DNA of 64,000 nucleotides, taken from positions 182,304-246,303 of the forward strand of contig JBBTWE010000001.1 of NCBI GenBank assembly GCA_038062955.1, written 5' to 3'. The notes beneath the pieces are model-generated. The model saw only the letters and a list, made by a program, of their open reading frames with translations, searched no databases and was not told where the DNA came from. The translations under genes were made by a program, and so were the position numbers. The DNA comes from Patescibacteria group bacterium. GTDB taxonomy: Bacteria; Patescibacteriota; Minisyncoccia; Phycocordibacterales; BOKC01. Within the stretch, counting starts at the first letter, position 1, and the number at the start of each line of letters is the position of its first letter. Below, in pieces: positions 1 through 53,224 of the stretch.

Positions 1-1795
1 CCCCAATTTTTTGGAGCTCTGTAGATAAGCTTTCGGTAGCTTTTTTTGCAGAAGCAATATCCGTTCCATCTTTTTCTTTTTTGAGGACGGTAATTTTTTC
101 TTCGATATTTTTCTTCAAATCTTCAGGGATTTTTCCTTCAGCGTCTTTAAGAGCTTTCTCGGCAGTGTATATAAGTTGTTCTGCGAGATTTCTGACCTCG
201 ATCATTTCTTTTTTCTTTTTATCTTCATCAGCGTGAAGCTCGGCCTCCTTTTTCATCTTCTCAATTTCTTCTGGAGAAAGTCCTGAACGAGCTTCAATTT
301 TTATCGATTGAACTTTGCCGGTTGTCTTTTCTTTGGCACTCACATTCAAAACCCCGTTTCGATCAATATCGAAAGTTACTTCCACTTGTGGCATTCCACG
401 TTGTGCTGGAGGAATTCCATCCAAAATAAATCTTCCCAAACTTTTATTATCAGAGGCCATCGGTCGTTCTCCTTGGACAATATGAATCTCTACTGATGTT
501 TGGTTATCAGCGGCAGTTGAGAACACTTGTGACTTCGAAGCCGGGATCGCCATATTTTTTTCAATAAGTTTTGTGGCAACACCACCCAAAGTTTCAATTC
601 CGAGCGAGAGCGGAATAACGTCGAGGAGCAGAACATCTTTGACGTCTCCAGAGAGCACTGCGCCTTGAATTGCCGCACCTAGTGCCACAACCTCATCAGG
701 ATTGATTGATTGATTTGGTACTTTACCAAAGAGCTCTTTCACTCTTTCAACAATTTTTGGCATTCTGGTTTGTCCTCCAACCAAAATCACTTCGTCAATC
801 TCTGACATTTTGAAAGGAGAAGCCTCAACAGCCCTTTTAGCAATCTCAATTGATTTGTCGATGAATTCTTTTGCCAAGTCTTCGAGAGAAGCTCGAGTCA
901 TTTTTATAAGAAGATGTCTTGGTCCGGAAGAATCCGAAGTGATGAAAGGAATGTTAACTTCCGTTTCAGTCGCGGTTGAAAGTTCGATTTTGGCTTTTTC
1001 TGCCGCCTCATCAAGTCTTTGAAGAGCAAGCTTGTCTTTTGTTATATCAATTCCCGATTCTTTCTTAAATTCACTTGCAAGCCACTTTATGATTTTCTGA
1101 TCGATGTCTTTTCCGCCCATGTGGCTATCTCCGTCAGTCGATTTAACTTCTATAGTTGATTCTGTCGCATCATCCCCTATCTCGAGTACTGAAATATCAA
1201 AAGTCCCACCTCCAAAATCGTAGACGGCGATTTTCTCGTTCTTTTTTTTGTCGAATCCGTAAGCGAGCGCAGCGGCTGTCGGTTCATTTATGATTCTCTT
1301 TACGTCGAGGCCTGCGATTTTTCCTGCCGCTTGAGTTGCTTTTCTTTGGTTATCATCAAAATATGCTGGAACAGTAATAACAGCTTCGGTAATTTTTTCT
1401 CCTAATTTTGCTTCAGCGTCAGCTTTGATTTTACTTAGAATCATGGCCGAAATTTCTTCAGCGCTATGATTTTTATTTCCCATCTTTACTTCTACTCCGC
1501 CGGTTTTGGATTCCACAATTTCATAAGGAACTGTTGCACGGTCTTTTTGCACCATTGGATCAGAAAAACTGTGACCAATAAATCTTTTTATGACAAAAAC
1601 AGTGTTAGTAGGATTCGTAACGGCCTGTCGTTTTGCAAGGAGTCCTACAAGTCTTTCTCCGGTTTTTGAGATTGCCACAATAGAAGGGGTGGTTCTCGCA
1701 CCTTCGCTGTTTTCCAGAATCTTTGGTGTGCCGGCTTCCATTATTGCCACCGCAGAGTTTGTTGTTCCTAGATCGATACCAATAATTTTAGACAT
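1..1795 (-). CDS. dnaK: molecular chaperone DnaK (Hsp70); N-terminal ~598 aa, C-terminus runs off the window start
   Basis: minus-strand ATG at 1793-1795 gives [22 protein letters not shown]..., with DLGGGTFD and Hsp70 ATPase and substrate-binding motifs; it follows grpE. Confidence 0.95.
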
Positions 1796-3981: not shown

Positions 3982-3998
3982 TCTTATATTTTTTTATT

Positions 3999-4019
3999 CC
4001 CTGCCTGCCGGCAGGCAGG
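3999..4019. repeat. perfect GC palindrome cctgcctgccggcaggcagg (a family; other copies at 35143-35162, and degenerate at 7980-8000, 11003-11021, 44331-44351)
   Basis: identical 20-bp palindrome twice, each followed by ttgRatct; the copies at 35143 and 44331 sit 16-40 bp upstream of tRNA-Ala 5' ends. Confidence 0.7.
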
Positions 4020-4032
4020 TTGGATCTTGAAT

Positions 4033-20523: not shown

Positions 20524-20614
20524 ATAAATAGTCTGTAATGTAGAATAGAAAGGTTAAATGGTATTAAACCCTTTGATCGTCTACACGCTCGCTAACCGGA
20601 ATAAAGCAAAACCC

Positions 20615-20658
20615 CCGAACCGAAAGGAACGGGGGTTTTGCTTTTTATTTTGACTTTA
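20615..20658. terminator. bidirectional intrinsic terminator
   Basis: A-run, aaaacccccgaaccgaaaggaacgggggtttt, T-run. Confidence 0.75.
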
Positions 20659-20678
20659 TAACTTTTAACCTTATAACT

Positions 20679-35127: not shown

Positions 35128-35142
35128 TTTAAATTTATGATT

Positions 35143-35162
35143 CCTGCCTGCCGGCAGGCAGG
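35143..35162. repeat. perfect GC palindrome cctgcctgccggcaggcagg, second copy
   Basis: identical to 3999-4019. Confidence 0.7.
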
Positions 35163-35179
35163 TTGAATCTAATTCCTAA

Positions 35180-44978: not shown

Positions 44979-45983
44979 TTACAAGACAATATTTTGAGGA
45001 TTGCCTTTTTCGAATTTTATTATATTTTCTATAGAAGTGTTTATTATTCTTTGGTTCGCTTCTTTGGTGTTAAAGGCTGTGTGCGGAGTGATAATTACTT
45101 TTGGACGATCAATCAAATAGTGGTTCATGAGGAGAGTTTTCAGATCGTCTTGGTTTGGATGAGGATTAGATAAGAGTTGCGTTTCGTCATTAATATATTT
45201 TTCTTCAGACAGAACATCTAATCCTGCGGCGGAGATTATTTTTTCTTCTAACCCAAAAACTAAGGCCGCGGTATCAATCAGAGAGCCACGAGCTGTATTT
45301 ATTATTACCACCCCTTTTTTCATTTTGAGGATTTTTTCTTTATTTATGATGTGGTGAGTGTCTTTATTTTCTGGCAAATGTAAAGAAATAATATCCGAAG
45401 TTTGGATTAGTTCATCAATTGTCACGTATTTGAAATTTTGCTCTTTGGCAAAGTTTGTATCCGGAAAGGCGTCGAAGGCAATTACATTCATACCGAAACC
45501 TTTAGCAATTTTTATAACATTTTTTCCAATTTTACCGGTTCCTAAAACCCCGATTGTTTTTTCAAATAAATCAAAACCAGTCAAACCATTAGGGCTAAAA
45601 GATCCTTCTTTTACGACTCTGCTGTTAGCAGCTAATATATTGCGAGAAAGATTGAGCAGTAAAGCGAAAGTAAATTCCGCAACCGTGTGTTCTCCGTATG
45701 TTGGCACATTTGAAACTATTACTCCCTTTTTTTTGGCTATTTTAAGATCTATATGGTCGAAACCTGTTGATCTGGTCGCTATAAATTTTAAATCGGGCAT
45801 TTTTTCAAATTCTTCTTTGCCTAATATTGAATCCACGAAAACAGATACAATCTCAATCCCCTTACCATCCCATTTTTCTCCTTTCTGGAGCGAACCGTCG
45901 TGAAAGACCATCTCAAAAGATGAAAGAGCTTTTGCTACATGATTTTTTTCTTCTTCTGTTCTGTGTGAGTAAAGAATTTTCAT
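44979..45983 (-). CDS. D-isomer-specific 2-hydroxyacid dehydrogenase (LdhA/PGDH-like)
   Basis: GVLGTGKIGKNVIKIAKGFGMNVIAFD NAD-binding motif; catalytic His/Glu region. Confidence 0.8.
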   Translation of the reverse strand: MKILYSHRTEEEKNHVAKALSSFEMVFHDGSLQKGEKWDGKGIEIVSVFVDSILGKEEFEKMPDLKFIATRSTGFDHIDLKIAKKKGVIVSNVPTYGEHTVAEFTFALLLNLSRNILAANSRVVKEGSFSPNGLTGFDLFEKTIGVLGTGKIGKNVIKIAKGFGMNVIAFDAFPDTNFAKEQNFKYVTIDELIQTSDIISLHLPENKDTHHIINKEKILKMKKGVVIINTARGSLIDTAALVFGLEEKIISAAGLDVLSEEKYINDETQLLSNPHPNQDDLKTLLMNHYLIDRPKVIITPHTAFNTKEANQRIINTSIENIIKFEKGNPQNIVL

Positions 45984-46008
45984 TTTTTTAATAGGCCTTA
46001 CGCACTAT

Positions 46009-47361
46009 TTAATTTATTTTTTGATCAATTTTCATTTCTTTTTCTATTTCTATTAATCTTTCGTATTTTGCTTTACGTTCCGGTGGATTGGGTGATCCTG
46101 CTTTGATACCGTATGTGCCGAGTCCGACTGCCAAATCAGCGATAAATGAGTCTGGAGTGTCTCCGGATCTGTGAGAGACGATTGTTTTCCATCCCGCTTT
46201 GTGTGCTAGACGGACCGCTTCAAAAACTTCTGAAACGGTGCCGATTTGGTTCGGTTTGATTATAACAGCGTTCGCGGCGTGTTCTTTTGACAGTTTGGAT
46301 ATTCTTTCTGGATTGGTTACTGTCAGATCATCTCCAACAATAATAGTGTCTTTTCCAATTTCACCCACTATTTTTTTAAAGTAAGTTTCGGAACTTTCTT
46401 CAAAAGGATCTTCAATGCTTTTGAGACGGAATTTTGAAGTAAGATATTTATATAAATTTAAAAGTTCATCGGGAGAATATGATTTCCCTAATATGTTATA
46501 GCTTCCGTTTTTGAAAAACTCCGAAGCGGCCGAATCAATGGCAAAGAAAACATTTTGTCTGCCTGACGCTTCTTCAAGAAGGCTGAATGGTTCTTCGATT
46601 TTTTCACAAATTGGAGAATATCCACCTTCATCGCCGAAAGGCACATTTCCAAACCGCGTTTTAATTATCTCTCCAAGATTTTTAAAAATTTCTTGTCCTA
46701 CTTGAAAAGACTGCTTGGCGCTTTTCTCTCTTATAACAATCATGTATTCCTGAAAAGGTAGTCGAAAGTTGGCGTGCACTCCTCCGTTTATGATATTCAT
46801 AAATAGACTGGGCATTTTCGGAGAAGTTTTATTTTCCTCGGCGATGTTTTTCCATAGAGGCAATCCATTTTCCTCGGCTCTAAGCATGGCTACAGCCATC
46901 GAAATTCCTATTGTCGTATTTCCTCCAAGAACGGACTTATTTTTTGTTCCGTCCAAAGAAATTAAGAGATCATCTATTTGCTTTTGATCTGGTTTTTTAC
47001 CTACAAGCGCCGGCGATATTTTGGTTGCTATGATCTCGATAGCTTTTTTCATTCCACCATCTTCATCGCGAAGTTCTGCGGCTTCCAATGATCCTGTTGA
47101 TTGACCGCGTGGCACAAAAGATGTAACGGTAAAATTATTTGATTCCAAAACAACCTTCAAAGTCGGTTTGCCCGTTGAATCTTTTATTTCATATCCCGAT
47201 ATTTTTTTTATTCCGGCTAGCGAGCGGCATCGCGAGAATTTATTCTCATGATGCGCGAGCGAAGACGGATCAAATGGTTTAATATCCCGCGGCTCTGCCG
47301 CGGACTTTGTGTCCAGGGCTTTGCCCTGGGGTTTAATACCATTTATTGAGCCGTCTTTCAT
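46009..47361 (-). CDS. eno: enolase (phosphopyruvate hydratase) with an unusual 55-60 aa GC-rich N-terminal extension
   Basis: YEIKDSTGKPTLKVVLE..., SHRSGDTPDSFIADLAVG motifs; no in-frame ATG close to the conserved N-terminus, so the ORF only starts at 47361. Confidence 0.9.
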   Translation of the reverse strand: MKDGSINGIKPQGKALDTKSAAEPRDIKPFDPSSLAHHENKFSRCRSLAGIKKISGYEIKDSTGKPTLKVVLESNNFTVTSFVPRGQSTGSLEAAELRDEDGGMKKAIEIIATKISPALVGKKPDQKQIDDLLISLDGTKNKSVLGGNTTIGISMAVAMLRAEENGLPLWKNIAEENKTSPKMPSLFMNIINGGVHANFRLPFQEYMIVIREKSAKQSFQVGQEIFKNLGEIIKTRFGNVPFGDEGGYSPICEKIEEPFSLLEEASGRQNVFFAIDSAASEFFKNGSYNILGKSYSPDELLNLYKYLTSKFRLKSIEDPFEESSETYFKKIVGEIGKDTIIVGDDLTVTNPERISKLSKEHAANAVIIKPNQIGTVSEVFEAVRLAHKAGWKTIVSHRSGDTPDSFIADLAVGLGTYGIKAGSPNPPERKAKYERLIEIEKEMKIDQKIN

Positions 47362-47372
47362 ATTTTGAAATG

Positions 47373-49799
47373 TTAGAGATTACCCAAAATCGTTCGCTCT
47401 TTTTCCGCAATGGAGCTCAAGGTTTTGATAACAGTGTCTGGATTCAGAGAAATGCTCACTATTCCCTCTTCCACAAGAAAATCGGCAAAATCCGGAAAAT
47501 CAGATGGAGCCTGCCCGCAGATGCCGATGTATTTATTTTTTGCTTTGGCGATTTTTATCACGTCTTTTATCATTTTTTTGACTGCTGGGTCGTTTTCGTT
47601 GGATATCTCGTCAACGATGGACGAATCTCTGTCCAAACCCAAGACTAATTGTGTCAGGTCGTTTGAGCCTATTGAGAATCCATCAAAGAGGTCAAGAAAT
47701 TCATTTGCCAGAATTACGTTCGAAGGGATTTCGCACATCAGATACACTTTCAATGTCTTATCGGCGTTTTTATCCAATCCGTAAGACGCCATGCTTTCTA
47801 AAACTTTTTTCCCTTCCTCAACTGTTCTGCAGAAAGGAATCAAAGCCACAACATTTTTAAGTCCTATCTCTTCGCGGACTTTTTTGAACGCAAGGCACTC
47901 CAATCCAAAAGCTTCTTTGAAGTCTGGATGATAGTATCTTGAAGCGCCACGCCAACCAATCATAGGGTTTTCTTCGCTTGGTTCGTACAATTCTCCGCCT
48001 AAAAGTTTGCGGTATTCATTTGTTTTAAAATCAGAGAATCTGATAATCACTTCATTCGGCCAAAAAGCGGCGGCTATTTTTGCTATACCTTCTGCCACTT
48101 CGTCTATATAAAACTTTTTTTTGTCTTCATAACCTGCCGTCAGAGAATCGATTTTTTTTGCCAGCAATCTCAAATCGGCATTCTCGCTGTTTTTATATTT
48201 TTCGTAATTTATGAGAGCGTTTGGATGCATTCGAATATGCGAAGCTATGATAAATTCGAGTCTCCCGAGACCCACACCACTAACTGGCAGAATATGATTC
48301 TTAAAAGCTTCATCTGGGGAGCCAATATTCACCATGATTTTTGTCTTTGTTTTTGGAATTTTGTCCAAATGATGTTCCAATACCTCAAAGGGCAGAGATC
48401 CTTCATAAATCAGGCCGCTCCCGCCAGATGAACAGTCGACAGTGATTATATCGCCGTCTTTAAAAGTCTTTGTTGCAATCTCTGTTCCAACTATGGCTGG
48501 GATTTCTAATTCGCGGGAAACTATGGCGGCGTGGCTTGTTCTACCTCCTTTGTCGGTAACGATGGCCGAAGCGATTTTCATTATCGGTTCCCAGTCTGGA
48601 TCTGTAATTTCAGTCACCAAAACTTCACCCTTTTTAAATTCCTCGATATTCTTTACATCTTTGATCATCCTGACTTTTCCGGTTGCTATTTTGGAACCGA
48701 CGGCGATTCCAGACAGAAGTATCTTTCCGGTTTTCTTTAATCGGTATTCTTTATAGATATTCTTATCTCGGGTTGAAATGACTGTCTCTGGTCTTGCCTG
48801 AATTATGAAAAGTTCTCCCGTCTTACCGTCTTTTGCCCATTCAATGTCCATTGGCTGGAGATGTCCATGCACTTTGGAGAAATGTTCTTCTATTTGCAAT
48901 ATCCATCCGGCGAGTTTCAAGATTTCATTGTCGGTCAAGCTGTATTTTCTTATACCAGCTTCAGGGACTTTCATGCTCTTTATACCCTTTCCGGAATATA
49001 CGAGTTTTTCGTTCTTTTTTCCCAAATTTTTGGAGATGATGGGGTTTGCGCTTTTGCCCAAAAGTGGCTTGAAGACAATAAATTCGTCAGGGATGACTTT
49101 GCCTTGCACGATAAGTTCACCCAAACCGTATATGCTGTTAATTATGATAGCGTTCTCAAAACCTGTTTCTGTGTCAATCGAAAAAGCGACCCCACTCGAA
49201 GCCAAATCGCTTCTTGCCATTTTTTGAATTCCGACCGAGAGTGAGATATCGAAGTGAGAAAATCCCTTGTCTTGCCTGTATGATATTGCTCTGTCTGTAA
49301 AAAGTGAAGCGAAGCATTTCCTGACTGCAAGGAGAATTTCATCAACGCCAAACACATTCAGATAAGTTTCTTGTTGTCCGGCAAAAGAAGCTCCTGGTAG
49401 ATCTTCGGCTGTGGCTGATGATCTTACGGCAGTATCAACATTTTTACCGTACAGTTTTTCTAAGTTTGTGTAGGCTTTCGATATTTCTTCCGCCAGATCG
49501 GGAGGAATCTTGCCTTTCAATATTAGTTTTCTTATCGCTTGGCCTTTCTTGGACAGATTTCTCATATTACTGGTATCCAGACCTTCTAAAACTTTAGCGA
49601 TTTTTTCTTTCAAACCTGATTTTTCCAGAAAATGGTTGTAGGCAAAAGAAGTGACGGCAAAACCATCCGGAACGTTTATTCCGAGCGGAACAAGATTTGC
49701 AATCATTTCTCCCAACGCTGCATTTTTACCACCAACAAGTGGCACGTCCTTGATGCCAATATCTTTAAACCAGAGAATGAAAGATTTTTCTTTATTCAT
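47373..49799 (-). CDS. ppsA: phosphoenolpyruvate synthase (pyruvate, water dikinase)
   Basis: GGRTSHAAIVSRELEIPAIVGT phospho-His domain; PEP-utilising C-terminal domain. Confidence 0.9.
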   Translation of the reverse strand: MNKEKSFILWFKDIGIKDVPLVGGKNAALGEMIANLVPLGINVPDGFAVTSFAYNHFLEKSGLKEKIAKVLEGLDTSNMRNLSKKGQAIRKLILKGKIPPDLAEEISKAYTNLEKLYGKNVDTAVRSSATAEDLPGASFAGQQETYLNVFGVDEILLAVRKCFASLFTDRAISYRQDKGFSHFDISLSVGIQKMARSDLASSGVAFSIDTETGFENAIIINSIYGLGELIVQGKVIPDEFIVFKPLLGKSANPIISKNLGKKNEKLVYSGKGIKSMKVPEAGIRKYSLTDNEILKLAGWILQIEEHFSKVHGHLQPMDIEWAKDGKTGELFIIQARPETVISTRDKNIYKEYRLKKTGKILLSGIAVGSKIATGKVRMIKDVKNIEEFKKGEVLVTEITDPDWEPIMKIASAIVTDKGGRTSHAAIVSRELEIPAIVGTEIATKTFKDGDIITVDCSSGGSGLIYEGSLPFEVLEHHLDKIPKTKTKIMVNIGSPDEAFKNHILPVSGVGLGRLEFIIASHIRMHPNALINYEKYKNSENADLRLLAKKIDSLTAGYEDKKKFYIDEVAEGIAKIAAAFWPNEVIIRFSDFKTNEYRKLLGGELYEPSEENPMIGWRGASRYYHPDFKEAFGLECLAFKKVREEIGLKNVVALIPFCRTVEEGKKVLESMASYGLDKNADKTLKVYLMCEIPSNVILANEFLDLFDGFSIGSNDLTQLVLGLDRDSSIVDEISNENDPAVKKMIKDVIKIAKAKNKYIGICGQAPSDFPDFADFLVEEGIVSISLNPDTVIKTLSSIAEKERTILGNL

Positions 49800-51132
49800 T
49801 TTTTTTGATGGCTAATATTAAATCTGCGACATTGGAACCGGTTAAACCAGTCCTAAAATAATCGCCAACTTTCTCGAAAAAATTGTAAGACGTGTTGCCC
49901 GCCAGAAATTCAGACGTATCCATATTAAGCTCGCGGATTCTTTTTATTGTTAGATTATCGCACAAAGCGCCGGCAAAGTCGGTGTTGTCCCAACCATCGC
50001 TATTTATGGCGGCCACCAAACAGTCATCATTTATGAAACGTGAAGCAGACAAAACCAACTCCTGATTTCTTCCACCTCTTCCAAGTTTTCTTGCAGTTAC
50101 AGTCGTCTCGCCGCCACAAATCAACACTTTGTTTATTTTAGCTTTATTTATTTCTTTAGCGATTTGCTCGCCAATTTCTCTCGCTTCTCCTTTTAGGTCA
50201 TTAGTTTTTATTTCTGAATCAAAACCAAGCTCGCTCGCTTTTTCTGCCATTTTGTTCAAAGCAGTAGTGTTAGAAAGGAAAAGAATATTTTTTACATTTT
50301 CAAAATATTTATCATCTTTGGGTGTTTCAATAAGATTATTTATGTCAAAACCGCAGGCCGTATTGGCGCTGTATTTTTCGATGACCAGTTTGGCATCCTC
50401 TATCGTGGAAGAATCTTTGATTGTTGGGCCGGAAGCCACGAACTCCATATCGCTACCGACATCGGAAAAAATCAAAGATATTGATTTAGCTGGAAAAGCA
50501 TACTTGGCCAAATACCCGCCCCTTGCCAAAGATAGATGTTTTCTGACAGTGTTTATTTCAATAATATTGGCTCCCGCGCCCATAAGACAGCTCACCATGT
50601 CTGATTCTTGAAAACAGGTAAAGTTATCTGGTTGGCAAAGCAGAGTTGAACCCCCGCCAGAAATTATAAAAATTATCAGATCGCTTTCTTCAGAATTTTC
50701 GAGTAGATCGATTATTTTTTTAGTTGAATCAACATTGTTTTCTGTTGGGAAGGGATGATCGCCTTGGCAAAATTTGATTTTCTTTGGCGTTTCATTGCAG
50801 ACTAAATCAATAACAATTCCGTCCGTCAGTTTGTCACCGAGAATATCTTCAAGAGCGAGTGCCGCTTCCAGAGAACATTTTCCCACTCCAACAACAAAAA
50901 TACGCTTGATTTTATCTAGCGCATAGGATGTTTCTTTGATAAAAAGATGGTTATTTTCGAGCTTTATTCCCTCCTTAATTGCATGCTTTGTATCTATAGC
51001 CTGGAGGCCGGCTTCCATTATTTCCACCGCCGCCTTGCGGAGTGGATTTTTAATGAGAGTATCGGAATTTTTAATCTTGGAGTCCTTATTTTTCACGCAT
51101 TGATTATAATCCCTCGTAGCTACGATTTCCAA
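49792..51132 (-). CDS. glycerate kinase (MOFRL/GckA family)
   Basis: VVGVGKCS...GGETTVTARKLGRGGRNQELVLSAS motifs. Confidence 0.75.
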   Translation of the reverse strand: MEIVATRDYNQCVKNKDSKIKNSDTLIKNPLRKAAVEIMEAGLQAIDTKHAIKEGIKLENNHLFIKETSYALDKIKRIFVVGVGKCSLEAALALEDILGDKLTDGIVIDLVCNETPKKIKFCQGDHPFPTENNVDSTKKIIDLLENSEESDLIIFIISGGGSTLLCQPDNFTCFQESDMVSCLMGAGANIIEINTVRKHLSLARGGYLAKYAFPAKSISLIFSDVGSDMEFVASGPTIKDSSTIEDAKLVIEKYSANTACGFDINNLIETPKDDKYFENVKNILFLSNTTALNKMAEKASELGFDSEIKTNDLKGEAREIGEQIAKEINKAKINKVLICGGETTVTARKLGRGGRNQELVLSASRFINDDCLVAAINSDGWDNTDFAGALCDNLTIKRIRELNMDTSEFLAGNTSYNFFEKVGDYFRTGLTGSNVADLILAIKKNE

Positions 51133-52285: not shown

Positions 52286-53224
52286 TTAAATTGTATTAGG
52301 TTTAATAAAATCATCTGGTCCCAATACATCGTAACCATCTGTGGAAATTTTTTTAGGTTCTCGTTTTATTTTTTTCTGGGTCAGGATTATTTCTTCGAGA
52401 GTTTTATAAGAATCAAGATTTCTTATTACTTCGTTGCCAGTTTCTGGATCAGTTGGTCTTAGTATTTTTTTATACATTATATGAAGTAACGGTGAAGGGA
52501 TGGCATATGTTAGAGAGGTACTATTAGTGTAGGTAATAAGTTTTCCATTTTCACCTTTTCCTAATATTTTAGTTTCAGGAAAACCAGCAAAAAGAATAGC
52601 CACAATTTTTCCGTTTGTTGGATTAAATATGGGTGAGCCACTAGATCCTCCGTGAGTTACCGCCTCTACAATTATTCCATGTGGGCTCTCACACACAAAA
52701 GGAAGTATTGCACTAACAATTCCTCTCTGTAGAATGGGAGAAAATTGATGAAGCCAACCAGCGGATTTTAATGTACTAGTTCCCATTGGAAATCCTGAAA
52801 TAAATACTTCATCTCCTTCCTCTACACTCAATGCTTTATCGATTTCTACAAATGGTAGGCCCTTCGCTTTTACATAAATTGCTCCAATATCAGGTATGTC
52901 CTCACCGTAGTGGACTCCATCAATTTCTTTTTCTCTAATTGTGTTACTAACTGCCTCAACATCAACATGAATCGTTAGCATTCCTAAGTCAGGCACATTA
53001 TGAAATAAAATTACTTGTATAGGTATTGATGTGGGGTCATTTTTTCGTCTTGGGAGCAAATTAATTGCATTAATAACATGATTATTTGTCAGGATAATTC
53101 CACTTTCATCAACTATGAACCCAGTACCAATGATGTCTGGAAAATCAGGACTTTTTGAATATTTAGAGACTATAGCTACAACTGCGGGTTTTATTTTCTT
53201 GTAGATCTCTGATGGAATAGACAT
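52286..53224 (-). CDS. trypsin-like serine peptidase (S1 family)
   Basis: catalytic triad context TNNHV (His), D, THGGSSGSP (Ser). Confidence 0.75.
   Translation of the reverse strand: MSIPSEIYKKIKPAVVAIVSKYSKSPDFPDIIGTGFIVDESGIILTNNHVINAINLLPRRKNDPTSIPIQVILFHNVPDLGMLTIHVDVEAVSNTIREKEIDGVHYGEDIPDIGAIYVKAKGLPFVEIDKALSVEEGDEVFISGFPMGTSTLKSAGWLHQFSPILQRGIVSAILPFVCESPHGIIVEAVTHGGSSGSPIFNPTNGKIVAILFAGFPETKILGKGENGKLITYTNSTSLTYAIPSPLLHIMYKKILRPTDPETGNEVIRNLDSYKTLEEIILTQKKIKREPKKISTDGYDVLGPDDFIKPNTI

Follow-up and report, generated by a model that had tools for sequence, protein, structure and literature searches.

This study concerns a cluster of GC-rich hairpins and direct repeats at the 5' end of the enolase gene (eno) in a 64-kb stretch of a Patescibacteria genome (hereafter the window). 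The gene order glycerate kinase, ppsA, eno and 2-hydroxyacid dehydrogenase (window positions 44979-51132, minus strand) is common to the window and to the two nearest relatives; the glycerate kinase is of the DUF4147/MOFRL type, and ppsA and eno almost abut, as they do in the relatives. The enolase open reading frame (ORF) is the sole stop-free frame of the six and spans all of the hairpins (coordinates are collected in Table 1). A sequence-only reading of the same DNA had reported two perfect hairpins, a 9-bp direct repeat with a spacing of 54 bp and read-through of the enolase ORF, and each of these was recovered exactly where that reading had placed it. The 9-bp repeat (GGTTTAATA on the plus strand) occurs twice with a start-to-start spacing of 54 bp and encloses two perfect 7-bp stems with 3-nt loops (CCGCGGC/GCCGCGG and CCAGGGC/GCCCTGG). 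Beside these are a third, imperfect hairpin of 13 bp with a second direct repeat of 7 bp (GCGAGCG) on either side of it, and an outer stem of 12 bp; the 7-bp repeat and the outer stem had escaped the sequence-only reading. The pattern CCNNGGCNNNGCCNNGG, searched with at most one mismatch, matched only the two eno sites in 64 kb as compared to 0.4 matches expected, and a scan of the whole window for GC-rich perfect hairpins with a 3-nt loop returned none of this kind besides the eno pair. An additional occurrence of GGTTTAATA at position 52299 was dismissed as a chance match. The minus-strand RNA of positions 47190-47380 was predicted to fold at -64.6 kcal/mol (z = -5.6; none of 200 shuffled sequences was as stable), and the z value ranged from -5.6 to -6.4 across analyses. 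An assembly artefact was ruled out, since four independent assemblies, each from a different groundwater sample (L007-L010), agreed with 100% identity over the 271 bp at 47150-47420.

To place these features the enolase was compared with its homologs. The 450-aa protein was 100% identical to P0001, the phosphopyruvate hydratase of a Patescibacteria metagenome-assembled genome (MAG), and the other 119 homologs among the matches listed were 384-428 aa long, covered 81-90% of the query and had no such extension, starting in the alignment 1-5 residues ahead of a conserved I-K-K-I-x-G-x-E-I-K-D-S motif. The enolases of the nearest syntenic relatives were 74% and 68% identical to it, and their eno ATG is located 4 nt (L001) or 9 nt (L004) past ppsA. 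The eno ATG of the window lies 11 nt past the ppsA stop codon, and therefore the ancestral start position has been retained; it takes another 150 nt until the conserved enolase sequence sets in again. When the 135 bp between the two AATAAA copies are taken out, the gene reads ATG AAA GAC GGC TCA ATA AAA AAA ATA TCG and the reconstructed N-terminus, MKDGSIKKISGYE, is normal for the clade (the relatives have MSGTIKKIIGSE and MGIGKIKKVSGVE). As shown by this comparison with its closest relatives, 135 bp have been inserted in eno; the insertion is 45 codons long, follows codon 6, keeps the reading frame and contains no stop codon. It would postdate the split from the nearest sampled relatives, those with 74% identical enolases. 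An in-frame ATG, GTG or TTG was not found between the ATG at 47361 and the conserved DSTGKPT motif, and the only in-frame near-cognate codons from that ATG to the conserved motif are ATA, ATT and CTG. The sequence-only reading had proposed an insertion and had noted a preserved frame and the lack of an in-frame ATG near the conserved enolase N-terminus, and all of this was borne out; its inserted unit of 54 bp was too small, as it makes up only part of the 135 bp.

The insertion belongs to a family of which seven copies were identified, namely the eno copy and a second one at 20554-20605 in this genome and five copies in metagenome contigs. The window copy at 20554-20605 was found by a sensitive self-search of the window, three copies (L016, L017, and L018) by a pattern scan of JGI metagenomes, and the remaining two (L023 and L024) were reached from an exhaustive peptide search via P0124, a 93-aa ORF that is 77% identical to the insert-encoded peptide, and a weak relative, P0228. 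Three copies, those of eno, P0124, and P0228, have the same frame open. The family core has the form (A)ATAAAGGGTATTAAACC-CTTTGATCCGTCTTCGCTCGC-(core hairpin H2: GCATCATGAGAATG..CATTCTCGCGATGC)-CGCTCGCTAGCCGGAATAAA, and the eno copy is identical to L017 and L018 at 42 of 43 nt in the 5' core with flanks that are all unrelated. The degenerate window copy is the shortest at about 52 bp and the longest reaches about 210 bp; no copy has an ORF of its own beyond read-through from neighboring genes. In six copies the motif GGTATTAAACC is preceded by AATAAA, ATAAA or TTAAA and the 3' end reads GGAATAA(A); L023 has the 5' motif and lost its 3' end at the end of the contig. The neighboring genes are a histidine kinase and a small ORF at L016, a protein with a C-terminal four-cysteine motif at L017 (which we take to be DksA/TraR-like) and small membrane proteins at L018. 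The copy at 20554-20605 sits directly ahead of a terminator, L016, L017, L018, and L023 are co-oriented with the gene upstream, and L024 is antisense to both neighboring genes. A repeated, apparently mobile hairpin element had been one of the two explanations offered from the sequence alone, and the six further copies support it.

Searches beyond these copies gave the following results. Rfam scans of the eno region and of L016-L018, at the gathering thresholds and at E <= 10, returned no relevant match, and blastn searches of plasmids and phages no match to the element. A viral contig collection was scanned for the core, the two-hairpin module and the junctions and yielded nothing relevant; matches to a degenerate two-hairpin pattern among these contigs were only GC-rich tandem repeats. 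The scan for the core in a genome-contig collection, which excludes the source MAG, gave two chance matches only, one from a Deltaproteobacteria MAG and the other from a Chryseobacterium MAG. No third copy was detected in the window and about 15 kb more of this genome (L019 and L020; about 79 kb altogether), with a filters-off covariance model being used on the window. A word-indexed protein search with the 53-aa N-terminus found no match, a result of little weight as the identical P0001 was also missed, and a Pfam scan of the insert peptide had no match.

The canonical short form of the family consists of a 5' hairpin (H1) and the core hairpin H2, and the long form adds a module of two hairpins (HP1 and HP2) in the loop of H1. 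H1 of the short forms is a simple hairpin with the loop UAUUAAA. The module is present in eno, L023, and L024, where it lies between GGTATTAAACC and GGTATTAA(A/C)CC, and absent from L016, L017, L018, and the copy at 20554-20605. Each of these four module-free copies has a single GGTATTAAACC precisely at the module boundary and hence constitutes an exact empty site of the kind predicted by the sequence-only reading. Its 54-bp unit, however, proved to be a module that some members of a larger family carry and others lack, and it could not be shown to be a mobile element in its own right. The double hairpin it proposed to search for does occur elsewhere, in L023 and L024, though only inside the family context, and the second hairpin that it noted downstream exists but is the conserved core hairpin H2. 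L024 has diverged far more than any other copy; its H2 hairpin is a different one and its linker contains an additional hairpin of 25 nt. As the same repeats nevertheless bound the module in L024, the module is probably ancestral. It follows as well from L023 and L024, with their module between the same repeats, that the 9-bp repeat is as likely an intrinsic sequence, serving as a deletion substrate in the short forms, as a target-site duplication. The copy at 20554-20605, which has a single TATTAAACC and a single CGCTCGC, is without the 54-bp unit and without H2, the latter deleted between the CGCTCGC repeats. Judged from the copies compared, deletion between short direct repeats flanking a hairpin has thus demonstrably occurred in this genome. 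Among near-identical cores all four combinations of the module and an expansion of the H2 loop were seen, which implies repeated change in one or both features, or recombination between copies. Nested hairpins in the H2 loop (GTCGATC..GATCGAC and GTAGAC/GTCTAC) were observed in L017 (390-505), L018 (about 600-660, minus strand), and L023 (560-625), and L017 also has an inverted second GTCGATC-type hairpin 3' of H2, a REPIN-like arrangement.

The stems of the element differ between copies by paired changes. At the variable pair of H1 (AAA-N-GG / CC-N'-UUU; alignment columns 9/99) eno has U-A, L023 G-C and L024 A-U, and HP2 shows a double change from C-G to A-U between eno and L024. H2 is conserved in L016-L018, carries three compensatory double changes in L023 and is replaced by an unrelated perfect hairpin in L024. 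HP1 and HP2 share the apical GGCAGAGCC and differ by two compensated stem pairs. These compensatory changes are suggestive of stems maintained by selection, with sequences too few for a statistical proof, and a selected structure would fit either a need for mobilization or an RNA function. The outer stem was formed in the eno copy only, and a flank pairing like it was absent from the four other copies tested. A match to the element as good as that of its arm AAGACGGCTCAA with TTGATCCGTCTT is reached by just 0.28% of random genomic 30-mers. This stem could be due to chance (the test was post hoc), to correction of a quasi-palindrome by template switching or to pairing with the target.

With regard to translation, 55 of the 58 called genes start at ATG and none at ATA or ATT. 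A Shine-Dalgarno-like motif precedes only 12 of the 58, and TATAAT was present 6-12 nt ahead of the ATG in several of them (genes of L019, L020, and L021, sequences of the same genome that overlap the window). These data suggest that leaderless or short-leader, Shine-Dalgarno-independent initiation is widespread in this Patescibacteria genome. The surroundings of the eno ATG are AU-rich like those of other starts in this genome. No promoter-like or terminator-like site was found on the coding strand of the insert. Eno is most likely translated from the ancestral ATG straight through the element. The extension encodes the peptides DIKPFDPSSLAHHENK, SAAEPR, and ALDTK. In an AlphaFold2 model built with 38 homologs, the predicted local distance difference test (pLDDT) score was below 50 at residues 1-29 and 32-41, whereas the enolase fold, which starts at about residue 51, scored above 90. 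All 79 invariant columns of the alignment with these homologs were kept. The extension is accordingly modeled as a disordered segment ahead of an intact enolase fold.

Table 1. Positions of the features at the eno locus and of the second family copy in the window.
Feature	Position	Strand	Remarks
Enolase ORF as now	46009-47361	-	450 aa including the 45-codon insertion
Ancestral eno ATG	47359-47361	-	11 nt past the ppsA stop codon (47373-47375)
135-bp insertion	47207-47341	-	One repeat-family copy plus one AATAAA copy
AATAAA, 5' copy	47342-47347	-	3' copy at 47207-47212; target-site duplication or intrinsic terminal motif
Direct repeat 1 (TATTAAACC, coding strand)	47330-47338	-	Inside the family motif GGTATTAAACC
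Two-hairpin module, 45 bp	47285-47329	-	HP1, 9-nt linker, HP2, then GA
HP1 CCAGGGC-AAA-GCCCTGG	47313-47329	-	Perfect stem
HP2 CCGCGGC-AGA-GCCGCGG	47287-47303	-	Perfect stem
Direct repeat 2 (TATTAAACC)	47276-47284	-	
Helix H1	47272-47344	-	AAAUGG (47339-47344) pairs with CCAUUU (47272-47277); encloses the module
Core hairpin H2 (GCAUCAUGAGAAU / AUUCUCGCGAUGC)	47227-47254	-	Flanked by CGCTCGC repeats (47220-47226 and 47255-47261)
Eno codons 2-6 (AAGACGGCTCAA)	47346-47357	-	Arm of the outer stem, 11/12 complementary to TTGATCCGTCTT (47262-47273)
Degenerate short family copy	20554-20605	+	nhmmer E = 1.6e-13; terminator hairpin next to it (20606-20641)
ppsA (PEP synthase), upstream partner	47373-49799	-	Pfam PPDK_N, PEP-utilizers, PEP-utilizers_C

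The reading we consider probable is that a small, non-coding, hairpin-rich Patescibacteria repeat has inserted in eno, where it is selfish or neutral and translated through in the manner of a Rickettsia palindromic element (RPE). A long-form copy would have inserted at an AATAAA site between eno codons 6 and 7. The ancestral ATG stays 11 nt past the ppsA stop codon and ribosomes would read through the element, the product being a functional enolase with a putatively disordered peptide of 45 residues after residue 6. As selfish or neutral DNA, the element may have survived in eno because by chance it landed in frame at a tolerant position. The stable mRNA structure may also make the translation of eno more dependent on ribosomes arriving from ppsA.

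Several points weigh against this explanation. Translation through the element, tolerance of the peptide, the mode of movement and the effect on coupling are all things we infer, and mobility itself is deduced only from the presence of copies in unrelated sequence contexts. That the insert is in frame and open is modest evidence: when the copies are read by eye, each half of the core has two open frames out of three, from which the chance expectation is estimated at roughly 0.1. The roughly 79 kb of this genome that were searched yielded no more than two copies, and a transposase-type domain was absent among the called genes of this region (Pfam). Terminal inverted repeats were absent when the alignment was read by eye, the ends being GGTATTAAACC... 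and ...GCTAGCCGGAATAAA; the only match between the ends in the folds is an internal imperfect pairing (7/9) of TTTGATCCG with CGGAATAAA. (A)ATAAA is present at both ends of the element, and one copy is needed to restore the IKK motif of eno. Since AATAAA is alike in every copy and takes part in H1 and P1 pairing, it may be intrinsic and not a duplication. A structure under selection could also mean an RNA function, and the 12-bp stem starts 4 nt past the AUG, where it would hinder initiation, so that initiation may rely on ribosomes that terminate at the ppsA stop codon, 11 nt ahead of the ATG.

The alternatives differ in what they take the element, or parts of it, to be. The 54-bp unit could be a separate tiny mobile element, either an IS200/IS605-style palindrome-associated element or a miniature inverted-repeat transposable element (MITE) that duplicates 9 bp, which inserted secondarily in the H1 loop and thereby duplicated TATTAAACC. 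The four empty sites with their single GGTATTAAACC, the likeness and same orientation of HP1 and HP2, the four combinations of module and H2 loop, with at least one feature gained or lost repeatedly, and the lengths of 81 bp (short element) and 54 bp, both multiples of three, are in line with such an origin. We nevertheless regard it as doubtful, considering that searches of the window, of about 79 kb and of viral contigs gave no module outside the family, that the most diverged copy carries it between the same repeats, that the H2 deletion at 20554-20605 can be demonstrated and that about 79 kb of the genome showed neither a Y1 nor a DDE transposase domain. An ancestral long form, from which the short forms arose by deletion or excision at the repeats, is ranked somewhat above secondary insertion with a 9-bp duplication. 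Other explanations place the function in the RNA. A cis-acting mRNA element (an attenuator, coupling device or sensor) that sets the level of eno relative to ppsA is improbable in our view. It would account for the very stable fold 4 nt past the AUG (z = -5.6 to -6.4), for the compensatory changes in the stems, for an outer stem that uses eno codons 2-6 (about 0.3% by chance) and for the co-orientation of four copies with their upstream gene. Against it stand the missing Rfam family, the unrelated neighboring genes, the copy that is antisense to both neighbors and the one before a terminator, the close relatives that manage with a spacer of 4-9 nt, and an identity between copies that is too high for an old conserved regulator. 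The suggestion of an mRNA regulatory structure, made from the sequence alone, consequently found little support, for there was no Rfam match, the neighbors were unrelated and one copy was antisense.

Initiation downstream of the element was considered as well, at the ATA codon at 47211 or at 47202, which would turn the element into a 5' leader of a normal-length enolase, with the old ATG functionally separated from the gene, and leave the upstream ORF untranslated or translated only as a coupling or leader peptide. From the ATA at 47211 the protein would begin (M)KKISGYEIKDS, a typical enolase N-terminus; the A-rich, unstructured GGAAUAAAAAAAAUA resembles other start regions in a genome mostly without Shine-Dalgarno motifs; and in L016 the same end of the element, GGAATAAA, lies 3 nt ahead of the ATG of the next ORF. 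The start codon usage of the genome (55 of 58 at ATG, none at ATA or ATT), an insert that can be read in frame and without a stop from the ancestral ATG, and the retained position of this ATG relative to the ppsA stop codon make a downstream start unlikely, and ribosomes initiating at the ancestral ATG would anyway reach the end of eno. A structured single-strand (RNA or single-stranded DNA) mobile element, whose hairpins are maintained through compensatory substitution and whose integration or excision is guided by pairing of TTGATCCGTCTT with the 5' flank of the target, as at eno, seems a little less likely still. If true, it would represent a guide-directed non-autonomous element, or an excisable intervening sequence in a protein gene of an ultra-small bacterium. 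Excision from the mRNA as a small intervening sequence, with a P1 or IBS-EBS-like guide helix and a normal protein as the result, is the least probable of the explanations and highly unlikely. Intervening sequences in rRNA genes are known for Patescibacteria, and the 12 nt just upstream of the insertion are complementary to an internal segment at 11 of 12 positions, but known self-splicing introns are far larger than 135 nt, no Rfam group I or II intron or ribozyme was matched, the four other copies tested had no flank pairing, and neither the preserved frame nor the lack of stop codons would be necessary in a sequence that is spliced out.

Further observations concern the insert peptide and other parts of the genome. 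The insert-encoded peptide FDPSSLAHHENKFSRCRSLAG (47203-47346, minus strand) resembles a 26-residue repeat, FDTSSVTDMSNMFSYCRSLAS, of long proteins, and the repeat unit (78 nt) is near the short element (81 bp) in length. More than 100 long proteins matched the peptide at E < 1e-3, via summed weak stretches; the two that were inspected have 26-residue repeats of the FDTSS type and one of them, P0130, is a DUF285 protein according to Pfam. Given the summed weak stretches and the lack of a Pfam match for the peptide itself, the resemblance was treated as due to chance. A second small repeat, ATTCCTGCCTGCCGGCAGGCAGGTTGRATCT, is built around a perfect 20-nt palindrome and occurs at 3997-4027 and 35140-35170 of the window and at 4213-4232 of L020, that is, in three copies in about 79 kb with 0 expected; one copy lies between rpsI and rplM. 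The bidirectional terminator hairpin after the short family copy gave an Rfam match to ohsC_RNA (20603-20669, minus strand; 55 bits with a gathering threshold of 50). As ohsC is presumably an E. coli family and the match is on a terminator hairpin, it is probably a hairpin-driven false positive.

Patescibacteria (Candidate Phyla Radiation) have tiny, streamlined genomes, and a full-text literature search found no description of small repeat elements in this group. The copies reported here point to a dispersed hairpin repeat family in Patescibacteria, one copy of which resides inside a central glycolytic gene without destroying it, and thus to a candidate parallel to the RPEs in another group of reduced-genome bacteria. 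For annotation this means that an N-terminal extension of a conserved protein in a MAG of this type need not be a miscalled start but can be a genuine repeat inserted in frame. Hairpins that are gained and lost as modules at short direct repeats, and stems with compensatory changes, also make the family a small natural system for the birth, upkeep and deletion of hairpins.

Of the known systems, hairpin deletion mutagenesis and quasi-palindrome template switching (PMC7202029, PMC5453318) describe a mutational process that accounts for the variation between copies, not for their dispersal: short and long forms differ exactly by the segment between direct repeats (GGTATTAAACC; CGCTCGC), and the outer stem of eno could be a 'corrected' quasi-palindrome. 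The element differs from group I and II introns by its 135 nt and the lack of an Rfam intron match, and from riboswitches, leaders and ribozymes by the lack of an Rfam match and of an association with a single gene class or strand. Repetitive extragenic palindromic (REP) sequences, REPINs (BIMEs) and IS200/IS605-type elements likewise have paired, GC-rich, short perfect hairpins, and the conserved apical GGCAGAGCC with covarying lower stems is as for hairpins that are recognized as structures. As in IS200/IS605-type elements, HP1 and HP2 have the form CCNNGGC-A(G/A)A-GCCNNGG with the purine loop on the same strand. Unlike REPs and REPINs, the hairpins are unique in 64 kb, the eno copy is intragenic and no GTAG-type head was recognized by eye; in addition no RAYT, TnpA or Y1 transposase was found among the called genes of about 79 kb, in contrast to both REP/REPIN and IS200/IS605 systems.

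The family shares more with bacterial MITEs (Correia/NEMIS, ERIC, BOX, RUP, and Nezha, among others), which are structured, non-coding and of small size, lie scattered at unrelated intergenic sites and are sometimes intragenic with in-frame fusions (PMC10969869). Like MITEs, it is below about 500 bp without coding capacity of its own, has near-identical copies in unrelated contexts and a short AT-rich direct repeat (here AATAAA) at both ends; unlike MITEs, it has no detectable terminal inverted repeats, and its AATAAA is invariant and maybe intrinsic. We know of no parent insertion sequence for this family. The closest analogy is with RPEs, which are about 100-150 bp long, non-autonomous and hairpin-forming and are found in frame in unrelated housekeeping genes, where they are translated; in-frame fusions are frequent for RPEs and other intragenic MITEs, and the translated peptide is compatible with the fold of the host protein (PMC10969869). 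The eno element corresponds to this with its 135 bp (45 aa) in enolase, a frame that is open in three copies and a peptide predicted to be disordered. It is an analog and not a member of the RPEs, from another phylum and likened by behavior, not by sequence; one intragenic copy was found here as compared to dozens for RPEs, at a low copy number (2 in about 79 kb), the family is modular with optional hairpins, and the insertion is at the extreme N-terminus, whereas RPEs occupy an internal surface loop. The repeat family is new, and its kind is one already known, that of palindromic repeats of small size which housekeeping genes tolerate in frame.

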